Shown here: positions 50,198 to 57,564 of the stretch, piece by piece
Numbering within the stretch: the first letter of the stretch is position 1
How the letters are laid out: the number at the start of each line of letters is the position of its first letter
Assembly: GCA_041739995.1 (NCBI GenBank)
Contig: JBGSMV010000047.1
Location: 160,001 to 224,000, forward strand
From: Bdellovibrionota bacterium
Lineage (GTDB): Bacteria > Bdellovibrionota_C > UBA2361 > JBGSMV01
Direction: 5' to 3'
Length of the DNA: 64,000 nt
Made by a program: the position numbers and the translations under genes
Notes under the pieces: generated by a model
Databases searched by the model: none
Told to the model about the DNA's origin: nothing
Seen by the model: only the letters and a program-made list of their open reading frames with translations

Positions 50198-51382
50198 TTA
50201 CTCTGGATTGGCGACTTCTTGGAAGTTTTCTGCGAGAACCTCTCCAGTCAACTTGGCCACTTCCGTGAGCTCCTCTGCGCTGATGGTAAGCGGCGGCAGG
50301 AAGCGAATCACGGTAGGTCCGGCCGGAATCGCAAGCACGCCTCGTTCCATAAGCTTTGCGATATAGGGGGTGCTCTTTTCCTTTAGTTGCAAGCCAATCA
50401 TCAGTCCTAGATTTCGAATCTCTCTCACCTTAGGAGAGCTCAAGGCACGTAGTTGCTCTACGAAGGCCTTTCCCTTCTTAGAGGCAGTAGCTGCAAGATC
50501 ATGCTTTTGCATATAGCGGATAGTGGCGAGAGCGGCGGCGCAGGCAAGCGGATTTCCTCCAAAGGTCGTGCCGTGCTGCCCAATGTCCAAACATACTTTT
50601 GAGTTAGAAAGCACCGCGCCCATTGGAACGCCACCTGCAATGGATTTTGCGAGGCACAGAATGTCAGGCTCTACCCCATACTGTTCAAAAGCAAACATAG
50701 AACCCGTGCGACAAAACCCAGTCTGAATCTCGTCTAGAATCAACAGAGCTCCCCGCTCAGAGCAAATTTTACGTACTTGCTGCAAGTACTCTTGGTCTGC
50801 GACATAAACCCCGCCTTCACCTTGAACCACCTCAAGAATAACACCTGCCACCTTGTCATCGCAGGCATTACTGAAAGCTTCTAAGTTGTTAAAGGGCACG
50901 TGCTTAAACCCAGGAACCAATGGCTCAAAGCCTTCGCGGTACTTTGGATTATGCGTGGCGCTTAGCGCGCCCATGCTGCGGCCATGAAAACCACGCACTG
51001 CGGCAATGAAATCTGTGCGCCGCGTACTTGCCCGCGCAAACTTAATAGCGGCCTCGATTGCTTCTGTCCCTGAGTTGCAGAGAAAAACGCGATTCAGTGA
51101 CTTAGGGCCGAGCGAGGCCAGCAGCTCAAACAGCTCGGAGCGTGCCTGGTGGTGGAATATCCCGGTGCAGCTCAGTAGTTGACGCGACTGTGCGCAAATA
51201 GCTTCCACTACCTCAGGATTGCAGTGCCCGACATTTATGGAGCCGGAACCGGAAGAGCAGTCAATGTATGAGCGACCCGCGCTATCCCACAGACGCGATC
51301 CTTCACCACGGACAAGCGTGATTCCACGCTTAGGGTAAATCGCAAGCTCATACTGATCGGAGAGTTCGGCAGCGTTAACCAT
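50198..51382 (-). CDS. lysJ: LysW-aminoadipate-semialdehyde aminotransferase (class III PLP; LysJ/ArgD family)
   Basis: [39 protein letters not shown]; lysW operon context. Confidence 0.85.
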
Positions 51383-51576: not shown

Positions 51577-52368
51577 CTATTGAATAACAGTGCCTTGGCC
51601 CTCAAGCGCGCGCTGAAGCGGATTTGTCACGCGACCATCCGCAATCACCACTTTAGACTCGGACGTAGTCAGCAGACGCGAAATTGCCATTAGCTTACGA
51701 CGAAAGCGACCCTGTGCGGTGCTTTCACGCGCAGCAAGTTCAGAGCGAGTGAGTTTTGCAATGACTGAACCAGAATCTTCTGCATTATTCAGAAAACCTG
51801 GAGCTTCAATAAACTGCACTACGGTATCCGCCTTGCACGCGACCTGAAGCAACGCGACGATGTCGTCATTTTCCGAATTAATAGCATAACCATCCGCATC
51901 GAGAATGGGAACGGTGATAACAGGCACGTACCCATTGTCTAAAAGCATTTGAAGCAGCTGTTGGTTGACTGATCGTGGTTTGCCCGAAAAATCTCGCACC
52001 ATAATGGTCTTGCCATTCTGCCGCACGCGTATTCCCGCATTTCGCTCGCCGCGAATAAGCTGGCCATCAATACCTGAGAGACCAATCGCATTTACCCCGT
52101 GACGCTGAAAGAGCTCCACTAAGCGCTTGTTGCGTAGCCCGGCGTATGACATGCACATCAAGTCGATTAGTTCTTCGTCACTTTGAACACTCGAAATTCC
52201 TGAGGCGGATTCGAGCGTGGTTATGGTGGTACAAAGCTTCTTGGCAAGGCTGTCCCTTAAGGCATTGGCGCCGTGCACTACCAAAAAAGGCTGTTTGTAT
52301 TGGGCGAGGTCTTTAACAATCTCTTCGAGGTTAATCGAGGCACCTCCGCCGATTTTCACAATCATCAT
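51577..52368 (-). CDS. lysZ: LysW-aminoadipate kinase
   Basis: MMIVKIGG, VVHGA, GLSGIDG, amino-acid kinase fold; ATG overlaps the upstream TGA (ATGA). Confidence 0.9.
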   Translation of the reverse strand: MMIVKIGGGASINLEEIVKDLAQYKQPFLVVHGANALRDSLAKKLCTTITTLESASGISSVQSDEELIDLMCMSYAGLRNKRLVELFQRHGVNAIGLSGIDGQLIRGERNAGIRVRQNGKTIMVRDFSGKPRSVNQQLLQMLLDNGYVPVITVPILDADGYAINSENDDIVALLQVACKADTVVQFIEAPGFLNNAEDSGSVIAKLTRSELAARESTAQGRFRRKLMAISRLLTTSESKVVIADGRVTNPLQRALEGQGTVIQ

Positions 52369-53003
52369 CGGGTAAATACCTCCACAGTCCTTCTTGGTAG
52401 CTGTTCCCATCCACTGAGCGAAGGCAAAACCTCAGAGCAGACGGCAAGCTCTCTACCTTTATGGACGTGCAAAGTGAAATATTCTGGAGCTTCAGAAAAG
52501 TCAGAGTACAGATAGGCGCGAGTCTCGTCGGCAAGCAGGACGTTCATGGCGCGCACATAACGTGTGCGACTGGTGATGAGCTTCATGGCGTCACGTAGTG
52601 CCGCCCCCCAATCGCCTTGGTAGCAGCTGCGAATCACATTAAAGATCTTCTCTGCGCCGATTCTGCCCTGTTCTCTTATCCTGACCCCTTGTAGCTCGCC
52701 GTTGAACGCAAAAGTAATGCCGTCTGCGAAAAAAGGCATATTGTTTTCAACCACAATACCTTCATCCCTAAAAGCGCTGCGAGCATGAGCGACTACTTGT
52801 TGCGCACCGACCAACGAAGGCAGAGAGTTCTCCCAGATGGGACAAATGCGGTGATGCGAGTGTGAATCTGCTTTAGTCTTCCACGATATGCCGTATCCGT
52901 GCCCCTGGAACTCTCGGCTATTCTTGCAGGCAGTCGCAAACTCGTTGAGCGTGCGAGCGCAATCCGGAAGAGAATCTCCTGCGAGATAAAGAAGTCGACA
53001 CAT
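52365..53003 (-). CDS. Class II glutamine amidotransferase-like Ntn hydrolase (YafJ/EgtC/DUG3-like)
   Basis: MCRLL N-terminal Cys nucleophile, GHGYG, AHARSA, NNMPF, FNG; AGGAAGGA RBS. Confidence 0.85.
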   Translation of the reverse strand: MCRLLYLAGDSLPDCARTLNEFATACKNSREFQGHGYGISWKTKADSHSHHRICPIWENSLPSLVGAQQVVAHARSAFRDEGIVVENNMPFFADGITFAFNGELQGVRIREQGRIGAEKIFNVIRSCYQGDWGAALRDAMKLITSRTRYVRAMNVLLADETRAYLYSDFSEAPEYFTLHVHKGRELAVCSEVLPSLSGWEQLPRRTVEVFTR

Positions 53004-53065
53004 TGCGTTAGTGGTCCTTCCTAAATAGTAACTGATAGAAGAAAAGCTAGGAAACCTCTGTATAA

Positions 53066-53137
53066 TTCGTGCTTCTAGCTTCGTGGTTTAAGCAAATCTA
53101 GGCCCATTCCTAGAGTTTCTTTGCACCACTAAGATTT
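53066..53137 (-). repeat. Intergenic REP-like element, copy 2 (inverted)
   Basis: Minus strand AAATCTTAGTGGTGCAAAGAAACTCTAGGAATGGGCCTAGATTTGCTTAAACCACGAAGCTAGAAGCACGAA. Confidence 0.75.
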
Positions 53138-53293
53138 AGTCTTTAAGAATCTTTCGAGTGTCCTGAGTTAAGAGTTCGATGAATAGCTCTGGCCGAGCTC
53201 GCTGCTCTCTTTGTGAATGTATTTATTGAATTACACAATGAGTTCAGCGAGAACAGCGAGAAAAATACTAAAATGAACTTCTGATTCAGCACA

Positions 53294-54343
53294 CTAAATT
53301 GGGTGTAATCCGCCGAACTCAAGCCCAAGAGTTTCTTCTAGGCCGTGCATAATGTTAAACGCTTGGAGTGCCTGTCCCGCAGCGCCCTTCATCAAGTTAT
53401 CCATTGCAGAGATTACGACCAGGCGATTTGAGAACGGGTCAATCTCAAACCCCACATCGCAATAGTTGGTACCCCACAGCAGTTTTGGATCGGGGTAGCG
53501 GTACAGGCCTTGAGATTCTTTGACGATTCTTACGAAAGGCTCGCTTTTATAAGCTTCGCGATAGATTTGCCAAATCGCTCGTTCATCGAGCGTTTGGTTT
53601 AAAAATACATGCGAGGTCGCCAGCACACCGCGCACCATATCAATGGCAGTGGCAGAAAAGTGTACTTTAAGGTCCTGCCCAAAGGATATTTCTTGCAGAA
53701 TCTCTGCCGTATGCCGGTGTCCAGTAGGCTGAAAGGAACGCAGAGAGTGAGAACGCACGGGATGATGCGATCCGTCGTTTGATTCTGCTCCGGCTTCGCT
53801 AGAGCCGACTTTGACTTCAACCACTACTGATTGAGGTTCTACGACTTGCTGCTTCAGCAATGGATAAAGCCCCAAAATGGTGGCGGTAGCGTTGCACCCA
53901 GCGCTAGAAATATAGTGAGCGCTACGCATCTCTTCGCGATGAAGCTCAGGAATTCCGTAGACAAATTTTGAGAGATACTGTGGTGCTTGATGCGGAGCAT
54001 GATACCAGCGGGCGTATGCTTCTGGATCTTTCAGCCTAAAATCAGCACTGAGATCGATAATTCGTGGTGCCTTTTCCATGAGCGAAGGCATGTGTTGCAT
54101 GCTCTGTGAATGCGGGAGGCAGGCGAATATCACGTCGCACTCTTGAAGCTCGGTCAGAGGCGAAAACTTGAGCTCGCTGCGTTTGCGAAGTGGTGGGTGA
54201 GTGCGGTGGGCGTATTTGCCACTCAGCCGCTCAGAGGTCACTTGGCGAATAGTGACGCTGGGGTGTGCGAGGAGAAGCCGCAGCAACTCGCCTCCCGTAT
54301 ACCCGGAACCTCCGACAATACTGACCGCAATCTTTTCAGACAT
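53294..54343 (-). CDS. lysY: LysW-aminoadipyl-phosphate reductase (LysY/ArgC family)
   Basis: [44 protein letters not shown] 54343 overlaps the lysX stop. Confidence 0.9.
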
Positions 54344-55190
54344 CGCGATGTTCCGCAGCTCGTAGCGTGTAATCAACGATGTGTTGAGGAATATTTACCC
54401 CAGTAGTCTGGATAGAGTTCTTATACTCCATGGTGTAGTTGACCTCGTTCGCGAGCAGCCCGTCTGGTGTTTCAAAGATATCGATCGCTACTATGCCACC
54501 TCCGACGGCCTTCGCTGCTTTAATAGAAAAGTCACGCAGTTCATTAGTCAGTGGACAATTGGAGGCAACTCCGCCTTGGGCGGTATTGGTTATCCAGTGA
54601 TCGGAAGTGCGGTATATTGCGGCGATACACTCATCCCCAACGACAAAGCTTCGAATGTCGCGACCACGCTTTTCTACATACTTCTGGATATAAAATATAG
54701 AGTGATGGTAGCTGCCCAGCACGGTCTTATGCTCAAGGATGGCTTCGGCTGCGTCTCGATCGTTCACCTTGGAAAGCAAGCGTCCCCAAGAACCTACTGC
54801 GGGTTTGAGCACGACCGGGTAACCCATCTCTTCGATGGCGCGTAGCGCTGACTGTTCAGTAAATGCAACGCGCAGCTCGGGCTGTGGCACACCGGCAACA
54901 CCAAGTGCGACGGAGGTAAGTAGTTTGTCTCCACACACCGTAGCAACTGCTTGGCTGTTGACGCAGCGCACTCCAGAAGCCTCGAACAGGGTCAGCGCAT
55001 GTAAGGCGCGTGAGTGATTGATGCAGCGCTCGACTACTACATCGACTCCGAAGCCGCGCGAACCTACCTTAAAAGAAATCTCTCTATCATCAATCATGAC
55101 GAGCTTCACGTCGGGACGAGATTGAAACTCATTAATGAGAAACTTCTCATCTGGCCGAATGAGGGAATGAAGGAACCCAACTCTCGTCAT
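54336..55190 (-). CDS. lysX: Alpha-aminoadipate-LysW ligase (RimK-family ATP-grasp)
   Basis: [56 protein letters not shown]. Confidence 0.92.
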
Positions 55191-55192
55191 GG

Positions 55193-55357
55193 CTATTCCC
55201 CCCAGTCCTCTTCTTCCTTTGGAGCTTCGGCAAGCTTAAAGGGATTGATCGCGGTAACTTCAAGCTCAGCACCACACTCGCCGCATTCAAGCAGTTCGTT
55301 TTTTAGGGTGTCTGCGCCAAGCTGCACTTGGGCGCTACATAAAGGACATTCAGTCAT
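55193..55357 (-). CDS. lysW: Amino-group carrier protein LysW (54 aa; absent from the ORF track)
   Basis: [54 protein letters not shown]; two CxxC and C-terminal EDWGE; GAGG RBS. Confidence 0.96.
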
Positions 55358-55772: not shown

Positions 55773-57564
55773 GTGGCACCAATCAGTTTTAACAACGCTG
55801 CACAATTGTTGCCTTTACAGGGCAATCATTGGTCGAGTCACTGACCAAGTAGCGCGAGTGTACGAACGTCTTTCCAGTGGTCAACGTATCAACCGTGCTT
55901 CAGACGACTCCGCTGGACTATTGGTCAGCTTCGGGTTGCGCATAAAGAACGCGGTCTACCAGCAAGCGATAAGAAACGTAAACGACGTGACGAGCCTGCT
56001 TAACGTGGCCTCTGGAGCTACGGAACAGTTGTCGGGCCTACTTGAGCGAATGAACGAATTGGCTGAGCAGGCTGCTAACGGCACTTTCTCGATTGCCCAA
56101 AGGCATACGCTGAATGTTGAATCAAAGGCTTTGATTAACGAGTACAATCGGATCGTGGAATCCACCACATTTAATCGGCGCTCGGTTTTCAACGTAACGG
56201 GAGGAGGTGTATCCGCCCAGCTTGGATTCGGTTCAAACGTGCTTCACACCGAGGTGGGAAGTCAACTTGCTCGGTTGGTGGGTGACGGAACTTTTACTGA
56301 CTACGGGGCGTCCGGTGGGAGCCCCTCGGCGGTGGGTTATTTCAATAATGACGGATTTGATGACTTCGTCTCGGTGGGAAGCACTGTCGACGTGTATCTA
56401 TCGGACGGAGATGGGACCTTCTCGCAGGTTGCTGGGCCAGCAATTGACACTGGGATAGCCGTTACCGTTGGAGATTACAATGGGGACGGGGACCTAGACG
56501 CGGCGGTATACGATTCATTCCTCGGAACATTTTCATTCTACTTGGGTAACGGGACGGGGAGCCTTTCAGCTTCTAGCCAGATCGCCGCTGGATTCAGCAC
56601 AGGGGCACTATATTCAGGTGACTTTGACAACGATGGTGACGTCGATATTGCTACTCGAGTCGGTACGTCTGTCCGTATCGCGCAGAATGATGGAACCGGA
56701 TCCTTCACGCTTCTCGCTGCGATCTCTGGTGCCACGGATCTCACCGGTCTCGGAGACTTCAACGGGGATGGCAATATCGATATCGTTGGATCGGGACGAA
56801 TATTGTTGGGGAATGGCGACAACACCTTCACTGAAGCCGACGCGGTCGGCGGGGCCTATTCAGCAGGAGATTTGAACGGAGATGGCTATGACGACCTTGT
56901 AGGTGTTTCCGGTGGAAATCTGTTTGCCGCTTTATCTAATGGTGATGGAACGTTTTCTCAGCTCTCGCTCGGAACTATTGCGTCAAGCTCGAATGGAACC
57001 CGATTGCCGCTTATTGGAGATCTAAACGGGGATGGTTTGCTAGACATCTACCATGCAACGGGAGCGGCTAGTTTTCAGGTAGTACTACAAGACTCTAACG
57101 GCAACTTCAGCGCTCAGACCAGCGTCAGTCTCGCTTCGGGCACCGCCGTCACCCAATTTGGCGACTTTAATGGTGATGGGGTGGTTGATCTTCGAACATC
57201 CGCTCGAACTTTGCTCGGCGATACGGAGCAGTCGGCAGGGATCGCTCACTTCAGCATTTCAACGCAGGAGTATGCACAGGAGGCCCTTGATTTGATTGAG
57301 GCGCAGCGCGAGCTGGTTGGACGTGAACTCGGAGCTCAAGGGGCAAGCCTAAGTCGCCTGCAGAGCGCCGCTAGTGTGCTCATCAACATTACGTCGGAGT
57401 TTGCCGCGGCAGATTCCCGAATTCGAGATGTTGATGTCGCCCAGGAGACCGCTGAACTGGTGCGACTTCAAATATTGCAACAGGCGGGAGCGGCCGTACT
57501 TGGACAGGCGAACCTGTCCTTTCGGCTTGTCACAGAGCTGCTTGCTCCTCCTGCGACGAATTAG
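55773..57564 (+). CDS. Flagellin with seven FG-GAP repeats in the variable region; N-terminus apparently frameshifted near 55820
   Basis: ERLSSGQRINRASDDSAGL N-domain; AADSRIRDVDVAQETAELVRLQILQQAGAAVLGQAN C-domain; GD(F/L/Y)NGDG..D repeats; main ORF 55858-57564. Confidence 0.85.

Follow-up and report, generated by a model that had tools for sequence, protein, structure and literature searches.

A candidate cysteine Ntn hydrolase in place of the metallopeptidase LysK in LysW carrier-protein operons

Background

The LysW pathway is a textbook case of carrier-protein-mediated amino-acid synthesis, in which LysX requires a gamma-carboxylate on the terminal residue of LysW and in which the M20 enzyme LysK (TIGR01902/NF003367) is, to our knowledge, the sole release enzyme known so far. 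The canonical gene order, lysW-X-Y-Z-J-K, is that of a Deinococcus plasmid operon. Three described systems resemble the one presented here in other respects. EgtC (PDB 4ZFJ/4ZFK/4ZFL; TIGR03442), the gamma-glutamyl-hercynylcysteine sulfoxide hydrolase, is a stand-alone class II amidotransferase-like Ntn hydrolase of ~210-230 aa with an N-terminal Cys, and it frees an amine by cleaving a gamma-glutamyl amide. The glutaminase domains of PurF and GlmS and the YafJ-like proteins (PDB 1TE5, 3MDN) have the same fold; an Asp of other class II enzymes grips the free alpha-amine of glutamine. Dop, of the Pup-proteasome system, deamidates a terminal Gln to Glu for the ligase and later cleaves the gamma-glutamyl-amine isopeptide.

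A literature search of titles, abstracts and text passages found no published account of an amidotransferase-like LysW-release enzyme. In related work, LysW and a GlmS-like domain are given only as separate viral genes (bioRxiv 2025.02.15.638363), LysX is the only member of the pathway mentioned (PMC3249071), LysK is taken as the hydrolase with no alternative enzyme named (PMC12998189), the terms lysK and amidotransferase occur 0 times (GapMind 2026, 10.1101/2024.10.14.618325), and a LysWXZYJ+Hcs locus without LysK is described in the genome of Caldithrix abyssi, its extra gene passing without comment (PMC5317091).

Results and discussion

The operon and its additional gene

The stretch of Bdellovibrionota DNA that was analysed (64,000 nucleotides, hereafter the window) contains a LysW operon on the minus strand, with the following features in the order in which that strand is read.

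55193..55357, minus strand: lysW, encoding the amino-group carrier protein; 54 aa when read from ATG 55357 (its longest frame begins at TTG 55369); PF21344 64.5 bits, TIGR01206 63.1 against a cut-off of 53.2; tail ...EEEDWGE
54336..55190, minus strand: lysX, ATP-grasp ligase loading the amino acid onto the C-terminal Glu of LysW; RimK and LysX_preATP_grasp domains, TIGR02144 345.6 against 275.6
53294..54376, minus strand: lysY, ArgC-type reductase, longest frame; TIGR01850 400.3 bits; translation probably begins a few codons further in, as the family match begins at residue 17
53004..53293, no strand: spacer of 290 bp between lysY and the hydrolase gene, 39% G+C, with a weak palindrome at 53097-53114 and no Rfam match
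52365..53003, minus strand: candidate hydrolase gene, 212 aa; its product is a stand-alone Cys hydrolase resembling class II (Ntn) amidotransferases, for which hydrolysis of LysW-gamma-lysine (or -ornithine) and deamidation of LysW-Gln are proposed
51577..52368, minus strand: lysZ, [LysW]-aminoadipate kinase; NF010659 239.3 against 223; start codon and hydrolase stop share the sequence ATGA
50198..51382, minus strand: lysJ, class III aminotransferase, with which the operon ends; TIGR00707 440 against 410

The Zn-ribbon carrier with its EDWGE tail, LysX, LysZ, LysY and LysJ all score over or at the curated cut-offs. An earlier note on this DNA had pointed to a 212-aa open reading frame with an N-terminal Cys and an ATGA overlap to lysZ, and both the frame and the overlap were confirmed: the product, encoded between lysY and lysZ, begins MCRLLYLAG, and its TGA stop (52367-52365) overlaps the in-frame ATG at 52368-52366, the start of a LysZ beginning MMIVKIGGG (a longer lysZ frame, from 52410, is in the list of open reading frames). 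After lysJ comes a Smr-domain gene on the opposite strand, and lysK is missing 3′ of lysJ. The claim that every LysW step except LysK is encoded proved true of the carrier-bound steps only; the host assembly, 91% complete, yielded no homocitrate synthase, homoaconitase, second isocitrate-type dehydrogenase (Iso_dh) or lysA. No Rfam match at E <= 0.1 was obtained in the operon region, a promoter and terminator scan of it gave no signal above that of shuffled sequences, and the G+C content of the operon (50.5%) is close to that of the window (51.5%) and thus gives no sign of recent transfer.

Fold and active site of the hydrolase

The AF2 model of the 212-aa protein (pLDDT 89.9) has the four-layer alpha-beta-beta-alpha Ntn fold. 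Foldseek returned 81 PDB matches at E <= 0.001, led by EgtC, PurF, 1TE5, 3MDN and GlmS; the best is EgtC (TM 0.71-0.76), followed by the glutaminase domains of PurF and GlmS. Membership in the EgtC family was considered and rejected on a TIGR03442 score of 30.3 against 218.65 and a neighbourhood of lysW/X/Y/Z/J without egtA/B/D/E; EgtC has 17-18% identity to the hydrolase and acts on a small molecule whose alpha-amine is free, whereas the hydrolase is proposed to act at the C-terminal residue of a protein. Pfam GATase_4 (PF13230) matches the 212-aa protein with 15.5 bits, below its gathering cut-off of 23, and is present in the precomputed annotation of many homologues; PF01546 and the M20 NCBIfam models do not match the protein.

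Four motifs, AHARSA (residues 72-77), NNMPF (87-91), FNG (100-102) and IGAE (115-118), are invariant or nearly so across 24 homologues. M1-C2 is invariant in all 24, and in 18 of 18 sequences when a divergent subfamily (see below) is included; H73, R75, N101 and G102 are invariant among the aligned homologues. In HMM alignments the HxR and Asn-Gly residues pair with HVR/AVR and HNG in 3MDN and EgtC, and in a MAFFT alignment they pair with HTR/HVR and HNG in the host's own GlmS and PurF, upholding the pairing of the HxR, NxxPF and xNG motifs previously made by eye. The HxR arginine is presumably the binder of the substrate alpha-carboxylate, and Asn-Gly is taken to form the oxyanion hole. The hydrolase thus resembles PurF, GlmS and the YafJ-like proteins in fold, Cys1, HxR arginine, NxxP and Asn-Gly motif, but it has no synthase domain. 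Where host GlmS and PurF have TDTE and ADTE, it has G-x-I-G-A/S-E/Q-K with nothing acidic before the Glu. In the window this stretch is G113-R-I-G116-A-E118-K119, in which G113, G116 and K119 are invariant in the aligned family members. The loss of the amine-binding Asp asserted in the earlier note stands insofar as MAFFT places no acidic residue ahead of E118; the exact pairing of columns is uncertain, gap placement near the Asp being arbitrary in this approximate alignment with host GlmS and PurF. An hhalign comparison of the family alignment with the single N-terminal domain of host GlmS gave no match (probability 0.4).

Linkage of homologues to lysW operons

The gene lies between lysY upstream and lysZ downstream in 68 of 80 homologous loci from many phyla, among them Bdellovibrionota, Ignavibacteria and other Bacteroidota, Acidobacteriota, Calditrichota, KSB1, Thermodesulfobacteriota, Gemmatimonadota, Binatia, Gammaproteobacteria and Planctomycetota. 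At least one lys gene is present in 78 of the 80 loci and all five in 54; the genomes of the two loci without lys genes carry lysW elsewhere. Linkage to lysW operons, which the earlier note had proposed as a check, is almost universal in this sample. In 36 of the 80 loci the gene after lysW is homocitrate-synthase-like, which identifies the homologous operons as lysine (aminoadipate) operons. Ten queries found no M20 or M42 gene within ~8 kb of the hydrolase homologues (0/80 loci).

A divergent subfamily, ~30% identical and retaining C2, R75, N101, G102, G116 and K119, is located after lysJ, the slot of lysK. A set of genomes of ~1 Mb labelled Methanosarcinales (G018) contributed five further loci of the order lysX-Y-GAT-Z-J, as well as a single divergent copy that follows lysZ/lysJ-like genes. 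A match on a Thermomicrobium plasmid was set aside, comprising a lone lysX only.

Mutual exclusion with LysK

No LysK-grade M20 protein is encoded in the host assembly (3.8 Mb, 91% complete), where the best TIGR01902 score is 23.4 bits against a cut-off of 163.1 and NF003367 reaches at most 39.2 against 363, in agreement with the genome-wide absence of LysK that the earlier note had wished to see confirmed. The host does encode M20 proteins, three in number, and a single M42 protein; among these is an ArgE/DapE-like protein of 443 aa, whose gene lies on contig 27 in an unrelated gene context.

The exclusion of lysK by the homologues, likewise raised there, was found in every sample that could bear on it, the counts being samples and the metagenome-assembled genomes possibly incomplete. 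Among 50 genomes carrying the hydrolase gene, none has a LysK over the TIGR01902 cut-off (best 106.5 against 163.1), and none of 80 metagenomic LysK loci has a match to the hydrolase. In 201 Acidobacteriota genomes the hydrolase gene occurs in 15 (10 strongly) and LysK in nine, with no overlap; the 21 of them with a true LysW tail comprise nine with the hydrolase, one with a divergent copy, nine with LysK, one with a partial LysK and one with neither. The 151 genomes of the G018 set have no LysK over the cut-off and so are unable to test exclusivity.

Matches to TIGR01902 below the cut-off (E <= 1e-5) occur in 47 of the 50 carrier genomes, and the four best of these that were examined are DapE/ArgE- or YgeY-like. 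Such generic ArgE/DapE-like M20 proteins could release lysine in trans. Two genomes (G172 and G169) have M20 genes that adjoin argB-like genes and look like the ArgE of an arg cluster.

Carrier termini and the modelled complex

Of 70 LysW carriers linked to the hydrolase gene, 20 have Gln as their last residue, as against none of 37 linked to LysK (Fisher p = 1.2e-4, with related genomes not independent). Gln-ending carriers need a gamma-deamidase, given the gamma-carboxylate that LysX requires. It might accordingly be proposed that the hydrolase serves only in maturation or repair, deamidating Gln-ending (or amidated) LysW, while an unlinked ArgE/DapE-type M20 deacylase of the kind found in the host and in most carrier genomes releases lysine in trans. 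The restriction of Gln-ending LysW to operons with the hydrolase gene agrees with this explanation, but it is improbable: the gene is also retained alongside the other 50 linked carriers, that of the window included, which terminate in Glu and so have no use for deamidation; LysK-grade enzymes are absent exactly where the gene occurs; a subfamily occupies the LysK slot; and all 80 operon neighbourhoods are free of M20 genes.

A model of the complex between the hydrolase and LysW, which the earlier note had suggested building, passed its controls and placed the carrier tail in the Cys pocket of the active site. Its ipSAE was 0.71 in three of three runs, against 0.01 for the best control; among reference sets, the mark applied is attained by 116 of the 157 solved complexes and by two of the 215 mismatched pairs. 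The runs agreed in at least 98% of contacts with a partner pLDDT of at least 83, and the modelled interface joins hydrolase residues 1-2, 75-78, 100-110 and 115-117 to LysW residues 45-54. The model supports binding of LysW by the hydrolase; we know of no solved complex of a class II amidotransferase with LysW.

A somewhat less probable alternative than maturation is a proofreading or regulatory hydrolase that strips misloaded amino acids from LysW or cleaves a small gamma-glutamyl compound, the main release being done otherwise. The closest fold is indeed that of an enzyme cleaving a small-molecule gamma-glutamyl amide, and the upstream aminoadipate genes are missing from the host's incomplete assembly; such a role would leave the exclusivity with LysK and the subfamily in the LysK slot unexplained, the modelled pocket holds the LysW tail rather than a free-ligand site, and the hydrolase lacks an equivalent of the Asp to which a free alpha-amine binds. 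That the protein is a true glutamine amidotransferase subunit supplying ammonia to a neighbour such as the coupled LysZ is very improbable in spite of the ATGA coupling, the greater likeness to the window's LysZ of LysZ from hydrolase operons (~50-58%) than from LysK operons (32-40%), and one 477-aa database protein joining an N-terminal part of the hydrolase family to an amino-acid-kinase domain, because the pathway has no ammonia-requiring step (its amino group comes from LysJ), the Asp for the alpha-amine of glutamine is missing, the post-lysJ subfamily is not adjacent to lysZ, and the 477-aa protein, whose match covers residues 1-128 only, may be a frameshift artefact.

Proposed mechanism and function

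The preferred reading is that the hydrolase is a Cys-Ntn enzyme that performs the last step of the LysW pathway instead of the metallopeptidase LysK, with a probability of roughly three in four; from the conserved residues, the operon linkage and the modelled complex we infer the following chemistry and substrate. Removal of Met1 would leave Cys2 as the free N-terminal nucleophile. The acidic tail of LysW (...EDWGE) would enter the cleft, where Arg75 would hold the free alpha-carboxylate of its last residue and Asn101-Gly102 would form the oxyanion hole, and the small residues Gly116-Ala/Ser117 at the place of the Asp would give space for the peptide chain of LysW (Gly53, Trp52). Cys2 would attack the gamma-carbonyl of the terminal residue, the leaving amine being lysine (or ornithine) when LysW-gamma-Lys is the substrate and ammonia when LysW ends in Gln, and hydrolysis of the gamma-glutamyl thioester would restore LysW-Glu for LysX. 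The reaction and pathway position proposed are those of LysK, which employs a dinuclear metal centre instead of Cys-Ntn thioester chemistry and has an unrelated fold.

The hydrolase probably also deamidates LysW-Gln. A broader interpretation, for and against which the chances appear about even, is that the family is the two-in-one enzyme of a second, widespread carrier-protein lysine pathway, in which a Gln-ending pro-carrier that LysX cannot load would be deamidated to Glu and the gamma-glutamyl-lysine isopeptide then cleaved in each cycle. This would be an independently arisen Cys-Ntn counterpart of the logic of Dop, with which it would share a small carrier or tag ending in Gln or Glu and a single dual-role enzyme; Dop is a glutamine-synthetase-like, ATP-binding protein of unrelated fold, and the role of Pup is to mark proteins for degradation, that of LysW to protect an intermediate of biosynthesis.

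Conclusions

The proposed replacement of LysK is directly testable, the parts being small, soluble and easily expressed. If true, it would be a clean case of non-orthologous gene displacement inside one conserved operon, it would extend the substrate range of class II amidotransferase-like hydrolases to a protein C-terminus, and it would give a reason for the terminal Gln encoded in some carriers; should the two-in-one interpretation also be true, Gln-ending carriers would be a possible control point of lysine synthesis. If release is indeed the function of the family, tools for annotation or gap filling that insist on LysK would err on genomes carrying the hydrolase, and lysine prototrophy would be under-called in Ignavibacteria, Acidobacteriota, Calditrichota, Thermodesulfobacteriota, Gemmatimonadota, Binatia and other lineages.

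The LysW operon

Six co-directional genes occupy the minus strand, and with curated models all five lys genes of the window score at or above their cut-offs.

55193-55357, minus strand: lysW, protein tail EEEDWGE (TIGR01206, 63.1 against a cut-off of 53.2)
54336-55190, minus strand: lysX (TIGR02144, 345.6 against 275.6)
53294-54376, minus strand: lysY (argC model, 400 bits)
53004-53293: spacer between lysY and the 212-aa ORF, 290 bp, 39% G+C
52365-53003, minus strand: 212-aa ORF of the putative hydrolase, starting Met-Cys
51577-52368, minus strand: lysZ (NF010659 '[LysW]-aminoadipate kinase', 239.3 against 223)
50198-51382, minus strand: lysJ (TIGR00707, 440 against 410)

The stop of the 212-aa ORF overlaps the lysZ start codon in an ATGA, the coupling described in the earlier note. 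Directly beyond lysJ comes a Smr-domain gene on the opposite strand; therefore, the operon within the window contains no lysK, as had been claimed. The lysY-hydrolase distance is a few bases in most other loci, in contrast to 290 bp here; the spacer contains a weak palindrome (53097-53114), no match to Rfam and no promoter signal above chance, and could harbour an internal promoter or regulatory element. Adjoining the operon is a 568-aa ORF (55858-57564, plus strand) that by eye has flagellin-like N- and C-terminal segments and a middle of repeated DGDG/FG-GAP-like units.

The proposed genome-wide absence of LysK was borne out in the assembly (3.81 Mb, 81 contigs, 91% complete), where no protein scores above 23.4 bits with TIGR01902 (cut-off 163.1) and the M20-type proteins reach at most 39.2 against 363 with NF003367. 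The four matches to the Peptidase_M20 model are an M42 aminopeptidase, two dipeptidase-like M20 proteins (466 and 511 aa) and a 443-aa ArgE/DapE-like protein under every cut-off, whose gene is flanked by a large ORF and by flavoprotein and MgtE genes, with ftsW further upstream and no lys or arg genes nearby. On contig 22 (52000-70000) a separate N-acetyl arginine cluster comprises argB, N-acetylornithine carbamoyltransferase (NF003384, 384 bits), argC and argG, and so the lysW operon is not the sole ArgB/ArgC-type set; no deacetylase was found within this cluster. Also in the cluster are a 239-aa DUF7523/ACT protein and a 354-aa ORF that matches no family.

Family and fold of the putative hydrolase

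The 212-aa protein scores 15.5 bits with Pfam GATase_4 (cut-off 23), and membership of the EgtC family was rejected at 30.3 bits with NCBIfam EgtC (cut-off 218.65). Of 2937 candidates in a word-indexed search, 2830 proteins pass E <= 0.001, and the top 120 of them span 201-235 aa at 45-52% identity; an exhaustive search of representatives yielded 264 clusters at E <= 0.001. Residues invariant in 24 sequences include M1, C2, R3, Q33, G34, G36, G38, P55, W57, H73, R75, S76, N87-F91, F100-L104, G113, G116-K119, N154, Y175 and W199. In one 477-aa predicted protein of the representative library (P0165), the first ~128 residues of the hydrolase family are linked to a domain of the amino-acid-kinase type (residues 215-401); it may represent a fusion of the hydrolase with LysZ, or else an artefact of a frameshift.

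The AF2 model (pLDDT 89.9, pTM 0.88) best matches the ergothioneine amidohydrolase EgtC in the PDB (4ZFL/4ZFJ/4ZFK; TM 0.71-0.76, query- or target-normalised) at 17-18% identity, followed by PurF, YafJ-like 1TE5, 3MDN and GlmS glutaminase domains. In class II amidotransferases the arginine of HxR binds the glutamine carboxylate, Asn-Gly forms the oxyanion hole, and in glutaminases the free alpha-amine of glutamine is gripped by the Asp of TDTE/ADTE. In HMM alignments, GhGwG, HaRSa, NNmPF and fNGe of the hydrolase fall on the corresponding motifs of 3MDN and EgtC, and a MAFFT alignment with the genome's own GlmS and PurF aligns the Cys, HxR, NxxP and Asn-Gly, in agreement with the earlier reading that the nucleophile, the carboxylate-binding Arg and the NG motif are kept. 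That reading also held that the amine-binding Asp is lost: the counterpart of the TDTE/ADTE stretch, G-R-I-G-A-E-K, indeed has nothing acidic before the Glu, but the exact column is uncertain because MAFFT places an 8-residue gap there.

Conserved linkage to lys genes

Scanning a single genome of each species confirmed 530 relatives among 600 pattern matches, and the best 80 loci, from many phyla, were searched by tblastn with the proteins of the window. The predicted co-occurrence with lysW operons was found: at least one lys gene is present in 78 of the 80 loci and all five in 54. In 68 loci the hydrolase gene stands between lysY upstream and lysZ downstream, each no more than 1 kb away; six more have lysZ downstream without lysY upstream (lysY is absent in three and the contig ends in three), and three keep lysY upstream but are cut off on the downstream side. 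L026 has only lysJ, after the hydrolase gene, and at L010 and L013 lys genes are missing from the neighbourhood, yet both genomes encode a LysW above the cut-off elsewhere. A homocitrate-synthase-like gene follows lysW in 36/80 loci (in a Melioribacter isolate it scores 343.6 bits with TIGR02146, under the cut-off of 413.55, but this is its best family), and therefore those operons are tied to lysine synthesis via aminoadipate.

Identity to the LysZ of the window is about 50-58% for LysZ of lysY-hydrolase-lysZ operons (L009-L088) and 32-40% for LysZ of LysK operons (L185-L264), although LysX, LysY and LysJ are similar in both operon types; LysZ may have co-diverged with the translationally coupled hydrolase.

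Homologues with 141-164-bit scores form a subfamily ~30% identical to the hydrolase of the window. Its gene ends the orders lysW-lysX-lysY-hcs-like-lysZ-lysJ-GAT (genomes G243 and G263), lysY-lysZ-lysJ-GAT (G187, of a phylum other than Acidobacteriota) and lysW-hcs-lysX-lysY-lysZ-lysJ-GAT (G344), where GAT is the hydrolase gene and hcs homocitrate synthase. The canonical operon of a Deinococcus plasmid consists of lysS, two homoaconitase genes and then lysW-X-Y-Z-J-K; the subfamily, placed after lysJ, therefore stands in the place of lysK. Residues invariant throughout the two subfamilies and in five distant members from databases are M1, C2, R3, Q33, G36, G38, P55, W57, H73, R75, F78, P90, F100, N101, G102, G113, G116, K119, N154 and Y175.

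Mutual exclusion with LysK

The expectation that the hydrolase and LysK exclude each other agreed with every sample. No M20 or M42 gene was found at the 80 best hydrolase loci (10 queries, E <= 1e-6), and in none of 50 genomes from these loci did a protein exceed the TIGR01902 cut-off (best 106.5 bits); an M20 match of some kind (E <= 1e-5) occurs in 47 of the 50, the four best examined being generic DapE/ArgE-family or YgeY-like proteins. Conversely, LysK relatives were gathered starting from the Deinococcus plasmid operon, 20 were aligned and metagenome contigs were scanned; the hydrolase was detected at 0/80 of the best LysK loci (tblastn, E <= 1e-3).

In a sample of 201 Acidobacteriota genomes, partly incomplete and, where related, not independent, the hydrolase gene is present in 15 at E <= 1e-10 (10 scoring at least 239 bits, three at 141-164 bits and two weaker), LysK above the cut-off in nine, and both in none. 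Twenty-one have a LysW tail of EDWGx or EDWNE: nine with a strong hydrolase gene, nine with LysK, G344 with a divergent hydrolase copy, G368 with a partial LysK adjoining lysW, and G259 with neither. Without the unpublished genome G352, the ten strong hydrolase genes become nine and the nine that accompany lysW become eight. The lysW-like gene of G259 (L169, end EDWNE) is a lone one: lys genes are absent for about 9 kb around it. Many Acidobacteriota also encode LysW-like zinc-ribbon ORFs (L172, L176-L184) under the lysW cut-off, with no lys genes nearby, in which long Asp/Glu-run tails ending in Tyr or another residue (e.g. ...DDDDEY) replace EDWGE.

Carriers that end in glutamine

Hydrolase-linked LysW ends in Gln in 20 of 70 tails (13 of 58 parsed from the 80 genome loci, with L057 masked; 6 of 8 from further Acidobacteriota; 1 of 3 from slot-type operons; 0 of 1 in the window), versus 0 of 37 LysK-linked tails (26 from metagenome loci, 10 from Acidobacteriota, one from the Deinococcus plasmid; Fisher's exact p = 1.2e-4, the genomes being related). 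LysX joins an amine to the Glu gamma-carboxylate at the LysW C-terminus, as established for Thermus, and therefore carriers with a Gln end would have to meet a gamma-deamidase before they could be loaded. A class II enzyme of the glutaminase type, able to take a terminal residue still linked to its peptide, fits this role exactly. The Gln-ending carriers are independent evidence that the enzyme would act at the gamma-position of the last residue of LysW.

Complex model and proposed mechanism

Modelling of the complex with LysW, suggested in the earlier note, used alignments of both chains (24 rows for the hydrolase, 20 for LysW) and gave an ipSAE of 0.71 in all three runs versus 0.01 for the best control, passing a mark that 116 of 157 solved complexes attain, as do 2 of 215 mismatched pairs (a rough guide only, own alignments having been used). 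Contact agreement between runs is at least 98% and partner pLDDT at least 83. The confident interface joins LysW 45-54 to hydrolase residues 1-2, 75-78, 89, 100-110, 115-117 and 119-120; Trp52 of LysW packs on L104, V107, G116, A117, K119 and I120, and Gly53 on F78, F100, G102, I115, G116 and A117. The model supports a predicted binding of LysW by the hydrolase. To our knowledge no structure of this fold bound to LysW has been solved, and so the model seems unlikely to have passed by reproducing a known complex.

From family knowledge and the model, we infer that removal of Met1 would expose Cys2 as the N-terminal nucleophile. The LysW tail would enter the cleft, its terminal alpha-carboxylate held by Arg75 and the oxyanion stabilised by Asn101-Gly102, and the small Gly116-Ala117 patch would leave room for the preceding peptide where glutaminases grip the free amine. 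A gamma-glutamyl thioester on Cys2 would then free lysine (or ammonia from a Gln end), and water would regenerate LysW-Glu.

The original observation is thus confirmed and its interpretation, non-orthologous replacement of LysK, is supported: we put the probability that the 212-aa protein is the LysW release enzyme in place of LysK at roughly 0.75, and that it is a dual enzyme, both LysW-Gln deamidase and release enzyme, is about an even bet. A search of literature outside subscription journals found no paper that connects LysW with a protein of the amidotransferase-like or Ntn type. No alternative to LysK is named in passages from a 2025 FEBS J paper on Thermus LysZ/LysY (PMC12998189), GapMind 2026 (10.1101/2024.10.14.618325), a nanohaloarchaeal virus preprint (bioRxiv 2025.02.15.638363), a 2011 review (PMC3249071) or the Caldithrix abyssi genome paper (PMC5317091), which describes an eight-gene LysWXZYJ+Hcs locus and passes over the extra gene.

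Input and product of the operon

Among 40 relatives of the organism (G401-G440), the hydrolase is found only in the one same-genus genome; the distribution of the operon in this order is patchy, despite a G+C that matches the genome. The 91%-complete assembly shows no aminoadipate supply and no diaminopimelate route to lysine: homocitrate synthase, homoaconitase, a second isocitrate-type dehydrogenase and a lysA above the cut-off were not found in it, the sole HMGL-like protein is of the HMG-CoA-lyase type, and there is just one aconitase and one Iso_dh. Two other genomes that carry the hydrolase gene but no hcs in the operon (G001, G003) also have no homocitrate/isopropylmalate-synthase-like match at E <= 1e-30, a threshold at which three complete genomes have two each. 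The input of the operon could be aminoadipate of unknown source, glutamate, or a product of genes lying in the 9% that the assembly lacks. Whether lysine or ornithine is made would not alter the chemistry of release.
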